This document shows, piece by piece, positions 2,078 through 34,721 of a DNA stretch of 64,000 bases. The DNA comes from Candidatus Bathyarchaeia archaeon. GTDB taxonomy: Archaea; Thermoproteota; Bathyarchaeia; Bathyarchaeales; Bathycorpusculaceae. The stretch's first letter is position 1. The number at the start of each line of letters is the position of its first letter. The stretch covers positions 1-64,000 of the forward strand of contig JBEKHN010000001.1 of assembly GCA_050012255.1 (NCBI GenBank), in the 5' to 3' direction. A program made the position numbers and the translations under genes. The notes below the pieces were generated by a model. It was given only the letters and a program-made list of their open reading frames with translations. It was not told the DNA's origin and did not search any database.

Positions 2078-2557
2078 CTACTTCGGCTTCCTAACCTTTT
2101 CGTCAGCCTCTTCGACCTCGCGCTTCTTTGCCAGCTGATAGGCTTCCACACGTTTTTCCACCTGCTGATCTTCAACTGCGAAGATCTTAGCGGCGGCGAT
2201 GGCAGCTCCTTCAGGCTCAAGCGTCACCAGAGAGGCCACTCCGCTGGGAACCCTTAATGATGAGTAGACGTCCACGCCGCTGAACTTTTCCGAGTACGGC
2301 GGACAGGCGATCACGGGCTTTGTAGTGTTCGCGTCAACGAAGGCGCTGAGAGCGTTAGACCTTCCCGCCACGGTGATGTAGACGACTCTTTCTTCCTCGT
2401 ACTCTTTCAGCGTCTTCAAGACTCTTTCCGGCGTCTTGTGAGCTGAGCCAACTCGAAACAGAAAGCTCAGTTCCAGAGCCTTGAGAAACTTGCCGATTTC
2501 CCGGCAGAACTCCATGTCGCGTTCAGAACCCATGATTATGATGACTTTGCCCTTCAT
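2078..2557 (-). CDS. purE: AIR carboxylase / N5-CAIR mutase
   Basis: IIMGSERD, SAHKTP, VAGRSNALS and PVIACPP motifs; ATG at 2557 chosen as start. Confidence 0.95.
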   Translation of the reverse strand: MKGKVIIIMGSERDMEFCREIGKFLKALELSFLFRVGSAHKTPERVLKTLKEYEEERVVYITVAGRSNALSAFVDANTTKPVIACPPYSEKFSGVDVYSSLRVPSGVASLVTLEPEGAAIAAAKIFAVEDQQVEKRVEAYQLAKKREVEEADEKVRKPK

Positions 2558-2619
2558 CCTTCCACTCGGCAACTGCTCTGCTAGAAGGTTTTACCGACTA
2601 ATTAGTTTTTAATCTTAAC

Positions 2620-3156
2620 TCAGACTCTTTTTGACTGTTGCTTGTAGCGCGCGTACGCAAGGGTGATCGTGACCAGCAGCGCTGTTGTAAGAGCCAAGGG
2701 CAGAATGGTTGATGGTGGAAACTCCGGAACCGAGTTTAAGTCTTGTTCAACGATTAGGGTGTAGTTCAGTATGCCAAGTATTCCTGCGCGCACGCTCATG
2801 TAGAAACTACCGGTTAGATTGTGAATGGGCGCGGTTCCGTTGGTAGGTGAGCCACCGATACTGTAGATAGTACCTACATAGCTGTTGGTTTCTCCTTGTG
2901 GATAAACGAAGACGAAGAAGCCTGCGTATGCGCTATGGTTTGGGTCGGGGCTGAGCATCCATCGGATTTGCCATTCAGGATGGTCTATCGTGAAGTAGGT
3001 CGTGTTATGAGTCTCACTGCTTCCTACGCCTGTAAACGTCGCCACTTCACTCCAGTTGGCCGTCTCGGCCAGGGCAAGGCTGTGAGCCGTCATCGTGGTT
3101 GCCACGAAAGAGATCAGCATCACGCAGAGGAAAAGCTGCGATGTTTTCATCTTCAC
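2620..3156 (-). CDS. Secreted protein with PEF-CTERM-like sorting signal
   Basis: Signal peptide; C-terminal VPEFP followed by a TM helix and basic tail; several N-x-S/T sequons. Confidence 0.75.
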   Translation of the reverse strand: MKMKTSQLFLCVMLISFVATTMTAHSLALAETANWSEVATFTGVGSSETHNTTYFTIDHPEWQIRWMLSPDPNHSAYAGFFVFVYPQGETNSYVGTIYSIGGSPTNGTAPIHNLTGSFYMSVRAGILGILNYTLIVEQDLNSVPEFPPSTILPLALTTALLVTITLAYARYKQQSKRV

Positions 3157-3219
3157 ACGGCGTGCATGGGCGATAACTTTACGAGTTCTCCCCGGTATAT
3201 AGGGTTTATCCGAGCATGC

Positions 3220-3441
3220 TTACGGCTTCTGCGCTCTGCTCCGCTTTACGACCACGAGCGTCAACGCGACGGTCAGCATGCCCACGATGAAACCAACCGC
3301 GAAGATCAACAGCCCCAACGTCGCAAAGTCAGGCGTCACGTTCAAGACGGCGAGAGCCAGCATTCCCGTGAGAAAACCCGCGATGAACAGGCCGAACCCC
3401 AGCACGAAGAAACCGCCCAGGAAACCCTTCTCCAAATCCAT
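3220..3441 (-). CDS. Small two-TM membrane protein
   Basis: MDLEKGFLGG..., two hydrophobic helices and a basic C-terminus. Confidence 0.6.
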   Translation of the reverse strand: MDLEKGFLGGFFVLGFGLFIAGFLTGMLALAVLNVTPDFATLGLLIFAVGFIVGMLTVALTLVVVKRSRAQKP

Positions 3442-3863
3442 TCTGTGCAGCCTCAATTCATTGCATGCTATTCCCGCAAGCTTCACAGAAAAGCTTTTCG
3501 AAGGTTGGATACCGTTGCTTTTTTGGTGGCGATTAGCGCCGGCTCTGCAAGATAGCCGTATCTCAAAACGTCGGTCAATAGTAAGGCGGAATACTAGCAA
3601 AACCCATCAATGCAAATGCAAGAACCAACGCGATTGCCCCGAGTGAACCACAGAACTTGAATAGCTTGGTGTCTGAAGCGAGCTTCTGCGCACCATAACA
3701 CATTAGAACGAGGAGAAAACCTGTTATCATTGCAACAAGTCCAGCTCCGTATCAAGTCTGGTCTATCGGTCCGATTGATAACGCAATGACATTCATCATA
3801 GTCGCTCGCGCGTCCGCTCACTTGAAACTTTACAGCAGATTTACTGATAGAATAAAGTGAAGT

Positions 3864-5471
3864 TTAGATGTTTCCACTTGAGACTGACACAACATTTTTA
3901 ATTGAATTCCAATCGTTGTTGAAGTATATGTCCCAAACACCTTGCGTAAAGTTATACGAAACAATCTGAGTTCCAAATTGGAACCCTATTTGCCCAGAAG
4001 TTGTAGGTATCCTAATCATCCTGTTAACATAGTCAAAACGATACTCGCTTGCTGGAAAATTCAAATCACAACTTGTATAGCTCTCTTCTGTCAAACTATC
4101 GCGTAGACTCCCAGTCTCTGGGATTATTCCATTTAGAAACATTATCATTGCGCCTGCTAACTGATCTTTTTTATAACAAGATTGATTTAGAACTTGTTCC
4201 CAAGCTTTGGGTTCTTTAGTAAGCATGTCAGTGACGGCATTTTGCATGCTGATAGAAAAAGAGGTATAAAAAGATTCAAGCGCTTCCCAAATAGCCAATG
4301 TCTCTTCGGGTCTAGCCTCTTCTGAAACTATACTTCCGTCAGGATTGTTAGCGTGATTCACAACATATAGCCAAGGTTGCCAAGAAGAACTATTCCACTC
4401 GTTTACTAAAAGCTTCTGATTGAGATCGCTTACGATATTTGGATGAACATAACCCAAATATTCGGTTATTTCTATTGCAAATCTTCCCATCTCACACTCA
4501 AAAACTTGCCAATTAGGTCTGTACCAATACCACTGACCAGACCACCATCCGTCATTATTCAGATGATTCCAAATTTTGTCCTCATAATTTCTAGCCGTTA
4601 ACAAACCATCTTCTTCAAAAATATGAAAACATCCTAGTGTTTGAGCTTCTTCATCATAATATCTAGAATTATGTTGAAAACTTGTCAGGTTCTGAGGATC
4701 AGGAAACGGAATTACTGTCCCAACACCAGCATATGAAAAACCTCCATCATATTCATCTACTAAACCTGCCAATTGCTGATATGCAAACGGTTCATTCCAT
4801 TTTGACATCAAACTACTTTGACCAAAATTATCAGCTAAAATTGCTGAATCCAATTTATTTACCGTTCCATCACCATTCAAATCACAATTTGAATTCCAAT
4901 TTGAACTATTCACAAGAGAACCAAAAGCTTTGCTTAACACTACAGCATCAAAAATATCTACTGTTCCGTCTGTGTTGATATCTCCAGAAACTTGTTTAGC
5001 CCATCTATAGGCATGTAACAAGAAACGACTGTCAACAGAAAAATAGTCTGCATAATATTGTCCATTCCACATTTCATCTGTTTTCGGAAGGCATCCTACC
5101 ATTGGTATATTCTCAAGTGCTTTGACAACAGCTAAAACCAAATTCTTGCTATTGTACCCAGACAATTCTGCTAACCTTTTGATTAATAAAACATCTATCC
5201 AATCATTGATTCCTAGATAATATTTTAGTGCATCTTCGTATGCTGAAGTAGGAAGCCTGCTAAAAATAATACCAAACTGAATTGTAGAAGCACTTGGTTT
5301 AGACCAATCTATTGAATTTAAATAACTATTCAACGAATCAGCTAAAGTGGCAATTGTGGTGCCCTGAACAGAATTAACTTTCACTGTGCCTAGAAAACTA
5401 GATGAGACCAAAACTAACGACACGAGAACGCTAAAAACCTTCACAAAGATCTTCATACTATTACCTCCCAT
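3864..5471 (-). CDS. Secreted dockerin type I domain protein on an AT-rich insert
   Basis: Signal peptide; duplicated Ca-binding motifs GDINTDGTVDIFDAVVL and CDLNGDGTVNKLDSAIL; visibly AT-rich compared with flanks. Confidence 0.8.
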   Translation of the reverse strand: MGGNSMKIFVKVFSVLVSLVLVSSSFLGTVKVNSVQGTTIATLADSLNSYLNSIDWSKPSASTIQFGIIFSRLPTSAYEDALKYYLGINDWIDVLLIKRLAELSGYNSKNLVLAVVKALENIPMVGCLPKTDEMWNGQYYADYFSVDSRFLLHAYRWAKQVSGDINTDGTVDIFDAVVLSKAFGSLVNSSNWNSNCDLNGDGTVNKLDSAILADNFGQSSLMSKWNEPFAYQQLAGLVDEYDGGFSYAGVGTVIPFPDPQNLTSFQHNSRYYDEEAQTLGCFHIFEEDGLLTARNYEDKIWNHLNNDGWWSGQWYWYRPNWQVFECEMGRFAIEITEYLGYVHPNIVSDLNQKLLVNEWNSSSWQPWLYVVNHANNPDGSIVSEEARPEETLAIWEALESFYTSFSISMQNAVTDMLTKEPKAWEQVLNQSCYKKDQLAGAMIMFLNGIIPETGSLRDSLTEESYTSCDLNFPASEYRFDYVNRMIRIPTTSGQIGFQFGTQIVSYNFTQGVWDIYFNNDWNSIKNVVSVSSGNI

Positions 5472-26576: not shown

Positions 26577-29500
26577 CTAGCCAAATTGGAGGTTTTGTAT
26601 GCGGCTGTTGTAGGTGGTGGTTCCCCAGTAGAACGTGGATGTTGTCCAGTTGTAAGGCCTGATGTAGTAGGCGTAGGTGTAGTAGTAGGCTGTCCAGGTT
26701 GTTGCTTGGAGCGTGGTGGCTTGAAGCTGCTCGGTTGTGAAGGTTGCGCACAGGGTCCAGCCTGACCCGCCGACTTGAACGTAGACGCGTATGACGAGGG
26801 AGTCTGTCTGCTGCAAGCCTGCTTGGGCCACTGAGACCGTGCCGCCCTGAATGCCCGACCCGCTGCTTCTCCAAACCACAGCCTTCGGCGTTCCCGTTTG
26901 ACCGTCAAGGCTTATCTCCTGTTCAACGCCGTTCGAGTGACGGACCCAGGCTCTTATGCCCCAAGAGGCTCCGTATCCGCTTCCGGACTGTGTGACGTAG
27001 GCGCTGCTGGTTGACTCTGGAATGTTGAGTTTGTAGGCGTTTAGGCCGTTTATGGTTTGGGTGTCGCTGCGCATGTACCGGCCGTAATAGACGTTTACGG
27101 AGCCGCTTGACACGCTACAGGCTATGGGCTGGGCTGTGCTGTTTCCGAGCTTGACGTCGGTCAGTGTCAGAGAGGTTGTTCCCGGCTGCAACGCCTGGAA
27201 CGTGAGCGTTGCCATGTTCATTGAACCGTTGAAGGATGGTGCCGGGTAAGTGGCGGCTTGAGCCATCCAATAGCGCGCGCACGTAGCGTTATATGTGGGT
27301 TGTAGGCCTGCACCGAAGTTCTGCGTGTTGTTCTGCCACTCAGTCGGAGTTTGGACAACGGCGTTCGTACAGTTTAGCAAATTACTGTTCCAGTAGAGCT
27401 TGAACTCCCAGCCGGAAAGATCATTGACGTTCGTGATCGTCACGCTAACCGCAAACGTTTCACCCTTAAACACTGTGAGCTGACTCGGGTTTACGGCTAC
27501 GGCTGCGCCTGCGTTAAGCATGGTGTTTGCCCCCATCGCAGGTGTGCCAATCTGGCTGCTTTGTCCCGAGGCGCCTCCGACCGAGTGTCCAAAGCTGCCT
27601 GCTAAGAGTATAGCGTCGTAAATGTCTACGCAGTTGTCGTTGTTCATGTCGGCGCTCGCGTTCCAGTTTGGATTTCCTGGACAGCTGTTGAAGGCTTTTG
27701 CAAAAAGTATAGCATCGTAAATGTCAACGCTTTCGTCAAGGTTTATGTCACCTGTGAGGCTGCTTAACGAGCACGAGTACACGCCTGAATGGGATATTGA
27801 ATTAGAATCTGAACCAGGGTAGATCCTGATGTACCATGGTCCAAATAAGTTGCCGTACGTCTTCACGTGTTCTGTCTGACCGGCTGGGTTGTTAGACGAA
27901 GCAACGAGCCCATCGAGCCCGCTCGAATTGTAGAGTCGGACGTCGAAATCTACGTAATTCGGCGGAGTCATATCAAAGTAAATGCCCTTCTTGTTGCTGT
28001 CGCTGAAGTTGAAAGTGTACCAGTCCTCAGGGTCAGGGTCTTGGCCATAAAGATACCCGTGGAAGACCGCATTAGGCGTTGCATAAGTTGCAGTTGCGAG
28101 CGTGTTGCCTGCATCGCCTTCATGTCCAGCATCATTTTGGCCAGCGCCATCGAACCACACCGAAATCTGCAGCGTATCATCAACGGAGAGTGGAGGTGGG
28201 TACGCGTTATACCAATTAGCAGTCGCGTTGACCCTGTAGTGAAGAGGCAGGGTTCTCCATCCGTATCTGCCTGTGACTGGTATTTTGACTGTCACTTTTT
28301 GAAAAGTAATGAATTCGCTGTAGGTTGTGCTGCCATTTGTAGTCACCGTGTTGTGCGGTGCGTAAATATACTCAGAGTAATGGTCGAAACTATCGATTCC
28401 TCCCCAATAGTTTTGGCACTGATAACTTGCCCATTGAGCAGCAAGTCTGACTCCGCCCAAGCCCCAAAGGATGTAACGCGCGATCATCGCGTTTGCGCTC
28501 GTACCCAGAAGGCCAGGCACGCCCAAGAACCACATTAGACCGAGAGCCAAGAAGGTTATCAGCGGGAAAACGCCCGATCCAAACCCGTTCAGCGTATCTC
28601 CGTAACCTTTTCCCTCTCTAGAGTCACTCATTTTGGCATTGGTCCAGACATCCTGCCAGTTCCACTCGTTATTAGTAGGTTCTACCAAGAAATAGGCTGA
28701 CTGATACGTGGCCCATAGGCCGCCACCACTCTGAATTGCCCCGTAAATAGGAAACACCAAGTCCATTGCCAAATTAGATGACTGATCAGTGTAGTACACA
28801 TTTGATATCAGTGGTTGCACTGCTAGTGTCCCATTTTGGATAGTGAGAACACCTACAGGATTTGAATATGCATCAAATTTTCCTTGAAAATTCCAGCTCT
28901 CCAAGCATGCCGCTGCAGCAGTTCCGATGAGGCCTTTCAAATAATCGCCAGAATGAGTGCCGTCAGTGAAGTTGCTGCCAATGCCCAGATGCACGTAAGT
29001 TCCAGGCCCGTTGCTACTCATGGATCTCTGGTTGACATTCGAGAAAGGCACTACTGCACCTGGCCAGTAGTTCTTTCCAGTGTCTGGGTCGGTGTAGTAA
29101 AATAGGGGAAAAGCATTGTATTCTCCGAACTGGTCGTTTCTGAGCGGATTTCCCACAGGTGCCTCAAACGCAGCATTAAGCTGCCAACTGGTCCTAGGCT
29201 CGGCATCGTAATCGGCAAATGTCGTCGTCGGGTGATGGATTACACCAATTGGGGTGAGAAGATCCGCATCCTGAATTCCTATAGTGCTCATGAGCCTCCT
29301 GAAACCTGCGCCAATCGTTGTTCCATTACCTGAGACCTCAGTCCAGTCGCCCTCGTTTGTTCCGTTTTCATAATAGACTTTGTGAAATGTGTATCCGCCG
29401 CAATGGATCCACGAGAGTCTGCGAGTCGACATGGACTCTGAGATCTTGTCAACCCATGCTGTTTTGTTATAAGTGTTTGGGACTGGCAGATAGGCTCCAT

Positions 29501-29851
29501 GAGTGTTTACGATTATTGAACCAACAGTGCTCTCGACAATTTCTCGGTATCTGCTCCATGTTGTAACTGCTTCTGGCGTTACCTGGTACCAAGGACTGTA
29601 GTCCACATTCCGTTTCGGATGAGCCCTAGGACCATTAAACTGTATGTAGTTACCCGTCGGCAGACATGCGTTGATCGCACCAATTCGGATCTGGTCTTGG
29701 TTGATTACTCCGTCGGTTGGCACAGTGCTCAATTCAAGTATGTAGACGTTCGCTTCGCCAGAAGAAGCCTTAGCCTCGAAAACAAAGGAAAAGAAAGGAG
29801 CAAAACAGGCAGAAGAATTAGCGCAACCAACAAAATACATTCTGTTTTCAT
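26577..29851 (-). CDS. Large secreted multidomain protein (PPC-like, dockerin and cohesin domains), apparently frameshifted in its signal peptide
   Basis: DPEDWYTF/DFDVRLY PPC-like domain; GDINLDESVDIYDAIL/ADMNNDNCVDIYDAIL dockerin; GETFAVSVTITNVNDLSGWEFKLYWN cohesin; signal peptide in a different frame from ATG 29851. Confidence 0.8.
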
Positions 29852-31242
29852 GTAACTTGCATCTCCTCGTCTCTTTCCACGTCTTTTTGTTTGCGTTTTG
29901 GGTACACGCCTGTACGAATGACGACAATGCCTACAAAGACGGAAAATACCCCTGAGACCAACACGGGAATATTCACAGGCCTCGAAGAAGAGGCGGCAAG
30001 TGCGGCTGCTTCGGAAGCATAGGACCGTGCTATTTTGTACTTTCCTGCCGCATAGGAATCAAGAGCCTTTTGGAACGCGGCTTTTGCCGCGTCCAATCCC
30101 ACGATTCTGCCGTCATTAATAGCATTTTGAATTAACTCCGACGCGCTTTCTCCATACGACCCATAGAGCTTGCTTATAGAATATGAATATTCAGAATAGA
30201 TTGCTGCGGCCATAGGAACATAACCCGCTATGAAGTCCGGTTGACCACCGCCACCAAAACCGCCGTAGAAGCCTGAAGTCCCCAGATGAACGTAGACGCC
30301 GAAGTTGAAGCTCGAGCTGTTCTGAGCGAATAACATTGCTGCGTGGAACTCTTTTCCAGCGCCATAAATGGGCATGATCATGTTGCCGCCAAAGTCGTCC
30401 AATCTAATGGGATACCCGACCGACATTTCCTGTTTTGTCGGAAGAAGCCACCAACTCTTGAGAACGTTCGTCAGATCAGTATCGCTGAAGACGCTGAACT
30501 GGCCACTAGGGTAGCAAGTGACGTTCACCTTTCCTATGTGACCCATCAACCCGGCATACCCTGCCGCCCCCCACTCACTCGCTGTCCCATTCTCATACCA
30601 CACACTGTGGAAGGGGTAGCCGCCGATGTGAACCCAGGTTCCCCAACGATTAAGCATGAAATCAGAGAGTTTGTCAACCCATTCCTCCCTCGTATAACCA
30701 GATGGAACAGGAAAATACTGGTCGTGAGTGTTAACAATTATAGTGTCATTGCCCTGCTCGATAACGGACTCGTACGTTCTCCAGTCTTGGACCAAAACGT
30801 ATGATACATTCACCTTAATGTTGGCAGCTAGATCGTTTCCTGCCAGTCCAATATTGACGTGCTTGACCCCATTTTCTCTTGGAGTGATCTCCACTGCCTT
30901 CAGCACACCATCCAATACAGCCGAATGATTTGACAAATAGACGTTCCCGACCTCGGGCAAGCTAACGACATAGACAGTCAGAGGAAACACTTGATCACTG
31001 ACTATGGTGTAGCCCAAGGGATTCGCGTCCGTTGAAGGATACTTAACGAGTTTGAAAAGGGAGTCCTGTGATGAAAAGTCAGAAGCGCGCAAGATTGGAA
31101 TGTAACAAAACATCAATCCTGCTAGAAGTGCAACCAGAAAAGATCGTGAAGACCTCTGCCATGGGAAGCCAGCATTCCCCATGTGCGATTCCATCCCCTC
31201 TCCAATTATTCGGCTGTTTCTATTTAAGCGTTTCTTCTGCAT
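29848..31242 (-). CDS. Membrane-anchored extracellular protein, paralogous to the N-terminal domain of the downstream gene
   Basis: N-terminal hydrophobic segment, C-terminal TM helix; shares IIVNTH..Y.PVP, W.H.GGY.FH and G.YVHLG motifs. Confidence 0.8.
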   Translation of the reverse strand: MQKKRLNRNSRIIGEGMESHMGNAGFPWQRSSRSFLVALLAGLMFCYIPILRASDFSSQDSLFKLVKYPSTDANPLGYTIVSDQVFPLTVYVVSLPEVGNVYLSNHSAVLDGVLKAVEITPRENGVKHVNIGLAGNDLAANIKVNVSYVLVQDWRTYESVIEQGNDTIIVNTHDQYFPVPSGYTREEWVDKLSDFMLNRWGTWVHIGGYPFHSVWYENGTASEWGAAGYAGLMGHIGKVNVTCYPSGQFSVFSDTDLTNVLKSWWLLPTKQEMSVGYPIRLDDFGGNMIMPIYGAGKEFHAAMLFAQNSSSFNFGVYVHLGTSGFYGGFGGGGQPDFIAGYVPMAAAIYSEYSYSISKLYGSYGESASELIQNAINDGRIVGLDAAKAAFQKALDSYAAGKYKIARSYASEAAALAASSSRPVNIPVLVSGVFSVFVGIVVIRTGVYPKRKQKDVERDEEMQVT

Positions 31243-31692: not shown

Positions 31693-32349
31693 TCAATTAA
31701 TGTATTCTGTTGGATCATCTATCTTTGCTTCCTTGAAGGCGTTCTTCCTGTTCAAGCATGACTCGCATCTTCCACAATGCTTTTCTTCCCCTCGATAGCA
31801 AGACCATGTGAGCTCAAAAGGAACCCCAAGCTGCTTTCCAATTTTCAGTACTTCTGATTTCTGTAGGTTGCTGAAAGGAGCTTCAATTCGGATTTCTACA
31901 CCTGTTCCCAGTCTGGCTGTATTCTCAAAAGACTTGTAGAATTCTTTCCGGCAGTCTGGGTAAAAACGGTCATCTGAGCCTTGTGCTCCATAGAACACTT
32001 CTGTAGCTTCGATCGAGATGGCGTAGGCAACTGCAACAGAGAGGAATATTGCATTTCTGAAGGGAACTATTATTGGTTGAGTGAAGGTTGGGGTCAGCTC
32101 GATATTTTTGTCGCAGAGTGCAGTTACTCCAGTAAATATATCTTTCAAACAGCTTATATCGATGATCTTGATTGGGATGTCGAGCCTCTCAGCGATGAGA
32201 TTTGCATATTTGGCTTCTTTTTCTGCTATCTGACCGTATTTGAACGTCAAAGCATGAACTTTGTAGCCTTGCTTTTTTGCCCAATATGCAACGACTGCGG
32301 AATCTGGTCCTCCACTTAGTACAACAATGCACTTGTTTGCCTTAGTCAA
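31693..32349 (-). CDS. queC: 7-cyano-7-deazaguanine synthase
   Basis: SGGPDS, VPFRNAIFLS, YPDCR and TWSCY..HCGRCESC motifs. Confidence 0.97.
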   Translation of the reverse strand: MTKANKCIVVLSGGPDSAVVAYWAKKQGYKVHALTFKYGQIAEKEAKYANLIAERLDIPIKIIDISCLKDIFTGVTALCDKNIELTPTFTQPIIVPFRNAIFLSVAVAYAISIEATEVFYGAQGSDDRFYPDCRKEFYKSFENTARLGTGVEIRIEAPFSNLQKSEVLKIGKQLGVPFELTWSCYRGEEKHCGRCESCLNRKNAFKEAKIDDPTEYIN

Positions 32350-32352
32350 AGC

Positions 32353-32832
32353 TTACTCCCACCATTTGAACCTTAACTCAATCATTTTGAAGACAAATGC
32401 ACCCATCAAGCATACCAATTGTTCACTTATCAGAAGGTAAGGAAACGTTGCCATCCAGGGTAGATCGAAAAGCTGGTTTAGCATCCAACTGACGCCTACG
32501 GGTACTATCACTGCGATGATTGCGCCTTCGATGAAGTAGTTTTTGCTGAATCTTTTGGCGACGACAAAGCCTATGATTCCCGCAGCTAGACTTACTAGTG
32601 GCATGAAGACGAGTTCATATGGTCCAGAAAACGGACTGAAGAGATTCCCCACGACTACTCCAAATGCATAGCCTATGCTCAGGATCCATTTCTTGGCAAT
32701 CGCCGGTCTTAGCACACCCGCAACCCTGAATTGCAACGCGTAAAAAGACAATGGAGCAAAGAAATAGACCAATACTGCGTATAAAGATGCAAAGACGCTT
32801 GCCAACGCTACGTCCTTAGTCTTTATTCTCAA
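32353..32832 (-). CDS. queT: QueT family transporter (ECF S component)
   Basis: ASLYAVL..PLSFYALQFRV and G...GNLFSPF motifs; in operon with queC. Confidence 0.88.
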   Translation of the reverse strand: MRIKTKDVALASVFASLYAVLVYFFAPLSFYALQFRVAGVLRPAIAKKWILSIGYAFGVVVGNLFSPFSGPYELVFMPLVSLAAGIIGFVVAKRFSKNYFIEGAIIAVIVPVGVSWMLNQLFDLPWMATFPYLLISEQLVCLMGAFVFKMIELRFKWWE

Positions 32833-32839
32833 TTTTCAA

Positions 32840-32900
32840 CCTCCTACACCGGGGTTTATGTTGGCGGAACGGGTGGAGGCCCACTCACCCGCCATTCTGC
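32840..32900 (-). promoter_or_regulatory. Structured 5' leader of queT-queC, candidate preQ0/preQ1 riboswitch
   Basis: TGGCGG/CCGCCA stem, A-rich linker and CCCCGG next to the GGAGG Shine-Dalgarno; TATA at 32921-32927. Confidence 0.5.
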
Positions 32901-33216
32901 TTCGCATATTCGAGATTACTCTTAAAAGCCTTTGGGGCGCGGGCTAACCCTGTTGAGACTTTGCCCTCCGATCTACTCAAGGCATTTTGCCAACAGTCAG
33001 AGCTTGCTTGGCCACAACACTGAATAGCATTAGGCTGAACGATCCTACGGAGCAGGACCCTTCAACGTTGACATAGCATGGCATCGTTTGTCCAATCTGC
33101 CATGTCTTGGATATATCGCGCATTATTTTTCTTGGTAGTCGTGTGCACTGGAACGTGATAGGAGAAAACTTAAATCTGTCCCATAATTGTGTTCATTATC
33201 CTATTGTCGTGATGAT

Positions 33217-34125
33217 ATGAGAGTAACGAAAGAGATCATCGAAGAGAAAGGAACTGATAGGTTGAAGAGAGGATTCGCCAAGATGTGCAAGGGTGGAGTG
33301 ATAATGGACGTCGTAAACGGAGAACAGGCAAAGATTGCCGAAGACGCTGGAGCTGTCTCTGTTATGGCTTTGGAGGCAGTGCCCGCAGACATACGCGCCA
33401 AGGGCGGAGTGGCAAGGATGGCTGACCCGCAGAAAATCAAAGAAATAATAAATGCTGTCACGATTCCTGTTATGGCCAAGTGTAGGATAGGTCATTTTGC
33501 AGAAGCGCAGGTAATCGAAGCTCTAGGAGTGGATATGGCTGACGAGAGTGAAGTGTTAACTCCTGCAGATGAAGAAGATCATATCGACAAGAGAAAGTTT
33601 ACAATTCCGTTTGTTTGTGGGGCAAGAAACTTGGGTGAAGCCCTAAGAAGAATAAACGAGGGTGCGGCGATGATAAGGACGAAAGGTGAACCCGGGACTG
33701 GAAATGTGGTTGAAGCTGTGAGGCACATGAAACTTGTGAATCGAGAGATAGCTGAATTGGGAAAGATGGCAGAGCCACGACTGAAGGAAAAAGCGGAGGA
33801 GTATCGTGTGCCGTTGAAACTGGTTATAGAAACGAGGGATTTAGGAAGGTTGCCCGTAGTGAATTTCGCTGCAGGAGGCATTTCAACTCCGTCCGATGCA
33901 GCTTTGATGATGCGATTGGGCGCAGACGGCATATTTGTCGGTTCAGGAGTGTTCAAATCTAAGAATCCAAGAGCGTATGCTAAGGCAATCGTTGAAGCTA
34001 CTATGCATTATGACGATCCGAAGACTCTGGCAAGAGTTTCTGAAGGCTTAGGTGAACCGATGGAAGGAATCGACACTTCAAGAATGGATGAAAAACAGAA
34101 AATGCAGACACGGGGAACCAATTGA
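33217..34125 (+). CDS. pdxS: PLP synthase lyase subunit
   Basis: [31 protein letters not shown] and FAAGGISTP motifs. Confidence 0.98.
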
Positions 34126-34721
34126 AGATTGGAGTCATAGCCGTACAAGGCACTATTTCTGAACACGTTGAAGCCCTAAGAAAAGCGATGGAAAAATCAA
34201 AAATCGACGGTAGTGTTGTGTACGTAAGAAGCCTGAAAGATCTTAATGATGTTTCAGGTATTGTTGTGCCAGGCGGTGAATCAACAACAATAAGCAAACT
34301 CATACTGAGCGCAGGAATGCACGAAAAAATAGCTGAACTCGCAAGAAAAGGAGCGCCAATCCTTGGAACCTGCGCTGGTACAATTCTGTTAGCTAAGGAA
34401 GGCGATGAAGAGGTCAGGAAGACCTGTACAAAATTGCTGGGTTTGTTAGACATGAAAGTCCTCAGAAATGCTTATGGCAGACAGGTAGACTCCTTCGAGG
34501 CTGATGTAAACATACCTGAGATTGGAGACAAACCTTTCAGGGCAGTGTTCATCCGTGCGCCAACGATAGAAAGAGTTTGGAACGGCACCAGAGTGTGGGC
34601 TGAACATAAAGGTACGATTATAGGAACAAAAAAGGAAAACATCTTGGCTTTGACTTTTCATCCCGAGCTAAGTGATGATCTAAGAATTCACGAATACTTT
34701 CTTACAATGACGACAGGATAG
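34122..34721 (+). CDS. pdxT: PLP synthase glutaminase subunit
   Basis: [23 protein letters not shown] and FHPEL motifs. Confidence 0.98.

Follow-up and report, generated by a model that had tools for sequence, protein, structure and literature searches.

The described systems closest to the leader analysed here are the three preQ1 riboswitch classes and, within archaea, the fluoride riboswitch. The preQ1-I class (RF00522) controls bacterial queCDEF and has a minimal aptamer of about 34 nt, which is an H-type fold: a loop strand pairs with the 3' tail to form a P2 of 3-4 bp, and an A-rich linker follows a short P1. The preQ1-II class (RF01054), also bacterial, is found directly before QueT-family genes, and its Shine-Dalgarno sequence (SD) lies inside the pseudoknot helix as one of its two strands, implying translational OFF control. 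The preQ1-III class (RF02680) is another pseudoknotted aptamer, with the SD in a distal helix. In archaea, archaeosine is made from preQ0, a free base that archaeal TGT takes as its substrate for insertion into tRNA. The fluoride riboswitch belongs to a class that is shared with bacteria. Its member in Thermococcus kodakarensis is presented, in a passage of PMC8241225, as the only natural archaeal riboswitch determined experimentally as of 2021. With regard to 7-deazaguanines, passages of PMC5372724 describe QueT as a predicted, unverified transporter of their precursors, mention that bacterial queT is sometimes located downstream of preQ1 riboswitches, and state that the preQ0 used by archaea for archaeosine is probably salvaged.

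The leader of queT-queC in the window (the whole stretch of 64,000 nt that was analysed) had been described in a sequence-only reading as a candidate preQ0/preQ1 riboswitch with an architecture like that of preQ1-I, and both a comparison with the Rfam models of classes I-III and a search for covarying homologues had been proposed as checks. The queC/queT context and a topology like that of preQ1-I, which is H-type, agree with that description, but membership of the class is not supported. None of the three preQ1 models matched within positions 32500-33300 at E≤10, no relevant Rfam family was found in that region, and 20 diverse copies of the motif gave 0 Rfam matches at E≤1. The likeness to preQ1-I, namely the pairing of a loop strand with the 3' tail and the A-rich linker after a P1 of 5-6 bp, is one of topology only: in the motif the core is 55 nt long (32894-32840), the pseudoknot has 10-11 bp and two bulges, other bases are invariant, L2 is a UU without a conserved C, and L3 contains an invariant CC. 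In one genome the motif also fronts QueE, QueC and FolE, which is comparable to the control of queCDEF by preQ1-I.

With preQ1-II the motif shares its location directly before a QueT-family gene and the use of the SD as one strand of the pseudoknot. However, it is archaeal, its conserved sequence is another one, and it combines P1 and the 10-11 bp pseudoknot with a competing hairpin, P2. The presumed ligand family and the pseudoknotted aptamer are shared with preQ1-III, but the SD of the motif lies inside the aptamer pseudoknot. Like the fluoride riboswitch, the motif would be a riboswitch of an archaeal 5' UTR, although it is only archaeal among the matches listed and would sense a nucleobase derivative. 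No description of it was found in the literature on preQ1/preQ0 and archaeal riboswitches, QueT and archaeosine, a comparison that lies apart from the review by Gupta & Swati 2019. The motif is, most likely, an archaea-specific riboswitch class that is apparently undescribed.

The queT-queC locus and its promoter

The features of the locus are the following, R1 being the covariance model described in the next section.

32840..32894, minus strand: whole conserved leader motif, from P1 to the SD (R1 match)
32921..32927, minus strand: TATA-like box TTTTAAG of the queT-queC promoter (from the sequence)
32830..32832, minus strand: start codon of queT (TTG), located 7 nt downstream of the SD
32353..32832, minus strand: queT, QueT-family S-component of 159 aa (Pfam PF06177, E 7.3e-17, 62.4 bits, cut-off 33.7)
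31693..32349, minus strand: queC, 7-cyano-7-deazaguanine synthase of 218 aa (Pfam, E 7.3e-66; TIGR00364, 204.2 bits, cut-off 150.3)

Both genes are those named in the sequence-only reading, since Pfam confirmed the two ORFs and TIGR00364 also recognised QueC; NCBIfam provided no name for either QueT of the window's genome. A gap of 3 nt separates the stop codon of queT from the start of queC. The sole contig obtained from an RNA library (one metatranscriptome run, 8% of words) is 219 nt long and corresponds to 32174-32392, that is, to the queT/queC junction, with the leader outside; it constitutes a weak hint of co-transcription.

The minus-strand leader sequence quoted in that reading was found at 32894-32840, and the TATA box that it had indicated, TTTTAAG, at 32927-32921. 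This box lies 27 nt ahead of the first P1 base, starting at -34 from P1. Among 124 unique loci, the A+T fraction climbs to 0.8-0.93 at -36 to -28 (counted from the first base of P1), and most TATA-like hexamers begin between -36 and -30. Since the usual archaeal spacing between TATA box and start puts the beginning of transcription a few bases before P1, the transcript would start about 4-8 nt upstream of this helix, and the leader motif would then represent the entire 5' UTR of queT-queC. SD-like words are located upstream of 9 of the 35 long ORFs in the window, as against 1 of 35 at a control position, so that SD-dependent initiation is plausible here, though not universal.

The genes pdxS and pdxT (33187-34721) are divergent from queT-queC, and both units share an intergenic region of 354 nt (32833-33186). 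Only the queT-proximal part of this region, of about 100 nt, is conserved in relatives. On the other side of the operon, downstream of queC, there is an ORF of 464 aa (29848-31242, minus strand) with no Pfam match at E≤0.01. Another ORF of the window, of 1116 aa (26577-29927, minus strand), shows weak matches to cohesin (3.3e-07) and dockerin (3.1e-06) domains, a combination that is typical of cellulosomes and unusual in an archaeon.

Distribution of the motif and the genes that follow it

When the window leader is folded as a single sequence, its stability does not go significantly beyond chance: the 41-nt hairpin alone has -17.3 kcal/mol (z -1.5), a value equalled by 10 of 200 shuffles, and folding of the 90-nt leader gives z -1.8. 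QueT orthologues with 62-80% identity are present in five other genomes of the same order. The sequences upstream of these orthologues cannot be aligned, apart from a stretch of about 65 nt with almost the same sequence as the window leader. A core of about 55 nt is thus kept before QueT genes with unalignable flanks, a conservation that lies well outside chance. The covariance model R1 was built from the six leaders (the window and the five genomes of the same order), with P1 and P2 as its only structure. It matched the window with 79.1 bits (E 3.4e-25, span 32830-32901).

R1 matches were found in 114 of 151 genomes of the same order (82 of the 104 high-quality ones), usually one per genome. 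They were also obtained in 31 of 151 genomes sampled across the phylum (E≤0.01), other classes among them, and in 10 of 121 genomes of a second phylum, that of a record titled Promethearchaeota. A copy (L115) is present in the genome of Bathyarchaeum tardum, which is in culture. The motif was found by R1 in all 55 loci that had been fetched either by QueT similarity or by R1 itself. A loose DNA pattern scanned over one genome per species retrieved at least 120 stretches, and 80 loci were listed. Among the pattern matches listed, an R1 score was obtained for 19 of 19 archaeal-titled loci (Bathyarchaeia/Bathyarchaeota, one Methanomethylicota, two 'Nitrososphaerota archaeon' and one Promethearchaeota) and for 0 of 61 bacterial-titled ones. 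These 61 bacterial matches, among the loci listed, were discarded as chance.

A second copy of the motif is present in the window's genome, before a second QueT paralog on contig C7. Contigs of foreign organisms, from sediment and peat metagenomes, pile up at 32822-32923 (two bins). In run X3 the summed depth there reaches 2500-4400, compared with about 50 outside, and in run X4 it reaches 1060-1670, compared with about 4-10. These contigs part from the window at 32839, 32849 or 32863 at one edge and at 32891-32894 at the opposite edge, positions that are the ends of the motif. This accumulation of contigs on the motif core could mislead coverage-based binning or variant calling at 32822-32923. 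In a different genome (L237:1001-1170, G102), a full motif is followed by an ORF of 33 aa and, about 65 nt further on, by a partial motif (tail and SD) that directly precedes QueT; this partial motif could represent either a tandem copy or a duplicate that has decayed.

Of 125 ORFs with 60 aa or more whose start coincides with an R1 match or lies shortly behind one, weak matches included, 121 encode a Pfam QueT. The other four are a QueE-like radical-SAM gene, which follows a strong match (L133), and three ORFs located after matches of 11-22 bits. The latter matches (L242, 22 bits; L243, 18 bits; L100:6111, 11 bits) were treated as false or uncertain; those of L243 and L100:6111 precede ABC-transporter and topoisomerase ORFs. 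The match L242 (G231:C1:9315-9384) has a P1 of sequence GUCGG/CCGAC and is located before an ORF of 214 aa without Pfam or NCBIfam family, in a genome where another, canonical copy precedes QueT. This match is either spurious or a diverged relative whose partner gene is new.

At 39 of 132 loci, QueT is followed by a QueC in the same orientation, and in the second phylum QueT is downstream of all 8 copies tested. Three copies of the motif are present in genome G311 (L133/L255, L258 and L259); they precede a QueE-like gene with QueC, a QueE-like gene with GTP cyclohydrolase I, and QueT. This genome has two QueE-like paralogs. The linkage of the motif to QueT, QueC, QueE-like and GTP cyclohydrolase I genes indicates that the regulon is the pathway from GTP to preQ0 together with its presumed importer.

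The window's genome, which is 98.5% complete, encodes, at window 31693-32832, C7:76585-77147 and C1:78903-79874, a TGT (282 bits), QueC and two QueT paralogs, both of the latter fronted by the motif. A search of this genome for QueD (PF01242) gave 0 matches and no convincing QueE was found in it, the best match having 26 bits. The presence of TGT without these two enzymes suggests that the preQ0 supply of this archaeon depends on QueT and QueC. Of 41 relatives, 2 gave a QueD match and 8 a full-length QueC (judged from matches above 130 bits), and 6 of these 8 have a queT-queC operon and no QueD. Most of the motif-bearing genomes of the order possess QueT without QueC. When it is linked to QueC, QueT may import CDG (7-carboxy-7-deazaguanine, the substrate of QueC) rather than preQ0.

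P1, the pseudoknot with the Shine-Dalgarno sequence, and P2

The motif can be divided into the following elements, given from 5' to 3' of the transcript.

32889..32894, minus strand: P1 5' strand UGGCGG, which pairs with 32862-32867
32885..32888, minus strand: start of L1, GUGA, unpaired, with invariant G and U (model positions 14 and 15, G and U in 124/124)
32873..32884, minus strand: P2 hairpin GUGG-GCCU-CCAC (anti-anti-SD), mutually exclusive with the pseudoknot
32870..32879, minus strand: pseudoknot 5' strand CCUCCACCCG (anti-SD and CCCG), located in the P1 loop, which pairs with 32840-32851
32868..32869, minus strand: L2, UU, unpaired (position 35 is U in 121/124, position 36 in 124/124)
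32862..32867, minus strand: P1 3' strand CCGCCA, which pairs with 32889-32894
32852..32861, minus strand: L3 linker ACAUAAACCC, with a variable start followed by invariant AAA and CC
32840..32851, minus strand: pseudoknot 3' strand CGGUGUAGGAGG, which includes the SD GGAGG (32840-32844)

The P1-like stem UGGCGG/CCGCCA of the sequence-only reading does pair. Its inner part, GCGG/CCGC, is invariant, and it is supported by covariation at the outer pair, which is GC in 37, UA in 9, GU in 4, AU in 2 and CG in 1 of 55 sequences, and GC in 55, AU in 11, GU in 6, UA in 5 and CG in 4 of 87 sequences. The A-rich linker is also present after P1, the A-rich stretch and the CCCC run being located at 32861-32851. 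Two other helices proposed in the same reading find no support in the comparison. In the competing stem CGGGUG/CACCCG, 0 pairs change in a compensatory way, and the outer one cannot form in 14 of 53 sequences; the pseudoknot between the CCCC run and a loop GGG has 0 such changes as well, and its third pair fails in 20 of 55. Both can be drawn in most sequences because both of their sides are conserved. Another pairing candidate, between GGGU of the 5' strand and ACCC of L3, is invariant on both sides.

Fifteen positions are invariant in the 124 unique copies: G10, C11, G12, G14, U15, G34, U36, C38, G39, C40, A46, A47, A48, C50 and C51. Nearly invariant are U35, C32, C33, C52 and G53, and variation is seen in the flanks, in the initial half of L3 and at both bulges of the pseudoknot. 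Within L3, positions 42, 43, 45 and 49 vary. Eight of the 15 invariant positions are unpaired and lie at the junction between P1 and the pseudoknot; invariant bases are beyond the reach of covariation analysis.

The pseudoknot joins the P1 loop to the tail that contains the SD. In the window this helix has 10 bp and two bulges (U32848 and A32845), and the bulge positions (55 and 58 of the model) vary freely. Its consensus is formed by a loop CCUCC(C)ACCCG and a tail CGG-N-GU-N-(G)GGAGG, and several subtypes are devoid of the CGG part of the tail. The pairs of P1 and the pseudoknot were counted on two alignments, A3 and A4, fitted to P1 and P2 and not to the pseudoknot. The proportion of paired cells was 96.2% in A3 and 92.5% in A4, as compared with 42-64% in slid registers, and the covariation score was reached by 0 of 500 shuffles in both alignments. 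Pairs changed on both sides numbered 5 in A3 and 10 in A4, counts that owe much to one coordinated single-base indel common to kin, which are not independent. This indel distinguishes CCUCCC/GGGAGG (type A) from CCUCC/GGAGG (type B).

Other compensations, which look independent, have been found in individual loci. For instance, L230 combines CCAG/CUGG with CCUCU/AGAGG; UUCCG/CGGAA is present in L199 and L200, CCACC/GGUGG in L203, L204, L238, L239 and L018, and GCCUCC/GGGGGC in L191 and L198. In L052, L054, L058 and L016, loop inserts lengthen the anti-SD to match GGAGGUGG or GGAGGUGAA, and the short Asgard forms (L265-L268) carry further compensations in the pseudoknot. A calculation that is free of alignment gave cognate loop-tail duplexes a mean of -18.5 kcal/mol, as against -16.3 for non-cognate ones (0 of 5000 permutations reach the cognate value) and -11.4 with shuffled tails; the 123 cognate duplexes are all at or below -10.4 kcal/mol. 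The queT/queC leader has, then, covarying homologues, and the helices that covary in them are P1 and the pseudoknot containing the SD. The presence of G.U pairs in both helices argues for a function as RNA rather than as a DNA operator.

Because P2 overlaps the 5' strand of the pseudoknot, both structures cannot coexist. The energies calculated for the window sequence are -9.0 kcal/mol for P1, -15.3 for P1 with P2 (P2 contributes about -6.3) and -17.7 for the pseudoknot helix as a duplex. In L024, L028 and L258, the change of A30 to G is offset in P2 by that of U19 to C, and the pseudoknot retains a G.U at this point, which suggests that both folds are under selection. The sequences give modest support to P2, and its absence from several subtypes points to an accessory role. 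The minimum-energy fold of the window sequence (-24.0) adds a local AACCCC:GGAGGUU hairpin. The SD may thus be partly masked in the P2 state too, so that the direction proposed for the switch is a tentative one.

Proposed switch, its ligand and alternative explanations

Two properties that are generally used to recognise riboswitches are found in this leader: it is a conserved structured element with covarying helices and invariant unpaired bases, and it is linked to the genes of a single metabolite pathway (QueT, QueC, QueE-like, GTP cyclohydrolase I). With its wide conservation, the putative promoter upstream of it and the nearly exclusive preQ0-pathway linkage, from which we infer the ligand, these properties strongly sustain the earlier proposal of a candidate archaeal riboswitch in front of queT-queC. 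We consider it probable that the leader represents a new class of translational OFF riboswitches for a 7-deazaguanine, most likely preQ0.

According to the proposed mechanism, P1 (GGCGG/CCGCC) would close a loop, and a strand of this loop would pair with the SD-containing tail to form an H-type pseudoknot. The 7-deazaguanine would be lodged where P1 and the pseudoknot abut, in a putative pocket made up of G14, U15, U35, U36, A46-48, C50 and C51; invariant unpaired bases at this junction are what a small-molecule pocket would be expected to show. In the absence of ligand, part of the anti-SD would be held by P2 in those copies that have this hairpin, and the SD would be more accessible. With ligand, the pseudoknot would be stabilised and the SD buried, so that translation of QueT, in charge of import, and of QueC, which carries out the last synthesis step, would drop. 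Three points make preQ0 the likeliest ligand: the pathway of the regulated genes ends in it, archaeal TGT uses it as substrate, and among the intermediates it alone is of use to the many genomes that carry the motif and QueT but no QueC.

The same RNA switch might respond to another ligand, such as CDG, preQ1, archaeosine base, guanine or some other purine-like metabolite. The presence of QueC-linked QueT in genomes without QueD fits the salvage of CDG, which would then be found in the cell, and the regulon (FolE, QueE, QueC, QueT) indicates a pathway and not a single intermediate. However, CDG would be useless to most motif-bearing genomes of the order, which lack QueC, archaea are not known to make preQ1, and all contexts have a single free base in common, preQ0, which is also the substrate of archaeal TGT. 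A ligand other than preQ0 is thus unlikely. We give somewhat less credit still to the idea that the leader is bound by a protein or a tRNA (e.g., by an autoregulatory or pathway-specific RNA-binding factor) with no direct sensing of a small molecule. Invariant unpaired bases and a fold that buries the SD would also suit a protein operator on RNA, but the sequence of the motif is kept across two phyla and before at least three different first genes, and compact pseudoknots in which L3 is rich in A are typical of small-molecule aptamers. An unsystematic look at the loci examined revealed no regulator gene conserved in their neighbourhood.

One would not expect a generic damper or thermometer to be confined to genes of the preQ0 pathway (QueT in 121 of 125), nor a ligand-independent leader to keep 15 invariant positions, many of them unpaired, over such a phylogenetic range. 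For these reasons it is improbable that the structure acts only as a constitutive translation damper, an mRNA stabiliser or an RNA thermometer, although the SD is pairable in both modelled states of the window sequence. Very improbable, finally, is a divergent member of preQ1-I, preQ1-II or preQ1-III. Such a relationship could be suspected from the queT context and the SD in the pseudoknot, as in preQ1-II, and from the H-type topology with an A-rich L3, as in preQ1-I; however, no Rfam preQ1 model matches the window region or the 20 diverse copies, and the motif departs from these classes in its size, in its pseudoknot of 10-11 bp and in the bases that are conserved.

The preQ0 riboswitch that we favour is a short element with a sharp prediction, for which a binding assay suffices as a test. 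We also lean, with a little more reserve, towards regarding it as the first archaea-specific riboswitch class, a preQ0 sensor that would govern both salvage by QueT and synthesis by FolE, QueE and QueC by means of a bistable hairpin/pseudoknot that buries the SD, in two or more phyla of archaea (Thermoproteota, Bathyarchaeia among them, and Asgard). If this is true, such a spread would mean that the class is old or else moves along with queT. RNA would have solved the sensing of 7-deazaguanines in a fourth, independent way, and a compact, well-defined aptamer of about 55 nt would become available for structural studies and for tools of inducible expression in archaea. The class would also provide direct evidence of SD-masking translational control in Bathyarchaeia, Asgard archaea and relatives. 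In sediment communities, the motif would serve as a genomic marker of preQ0 or CDG auxotrophy and of cross-feeding, and many sediment archaea without QueD, QueE and QueC would live on imported 7-deazaguanines, the uptake of which would be metered by RNA.
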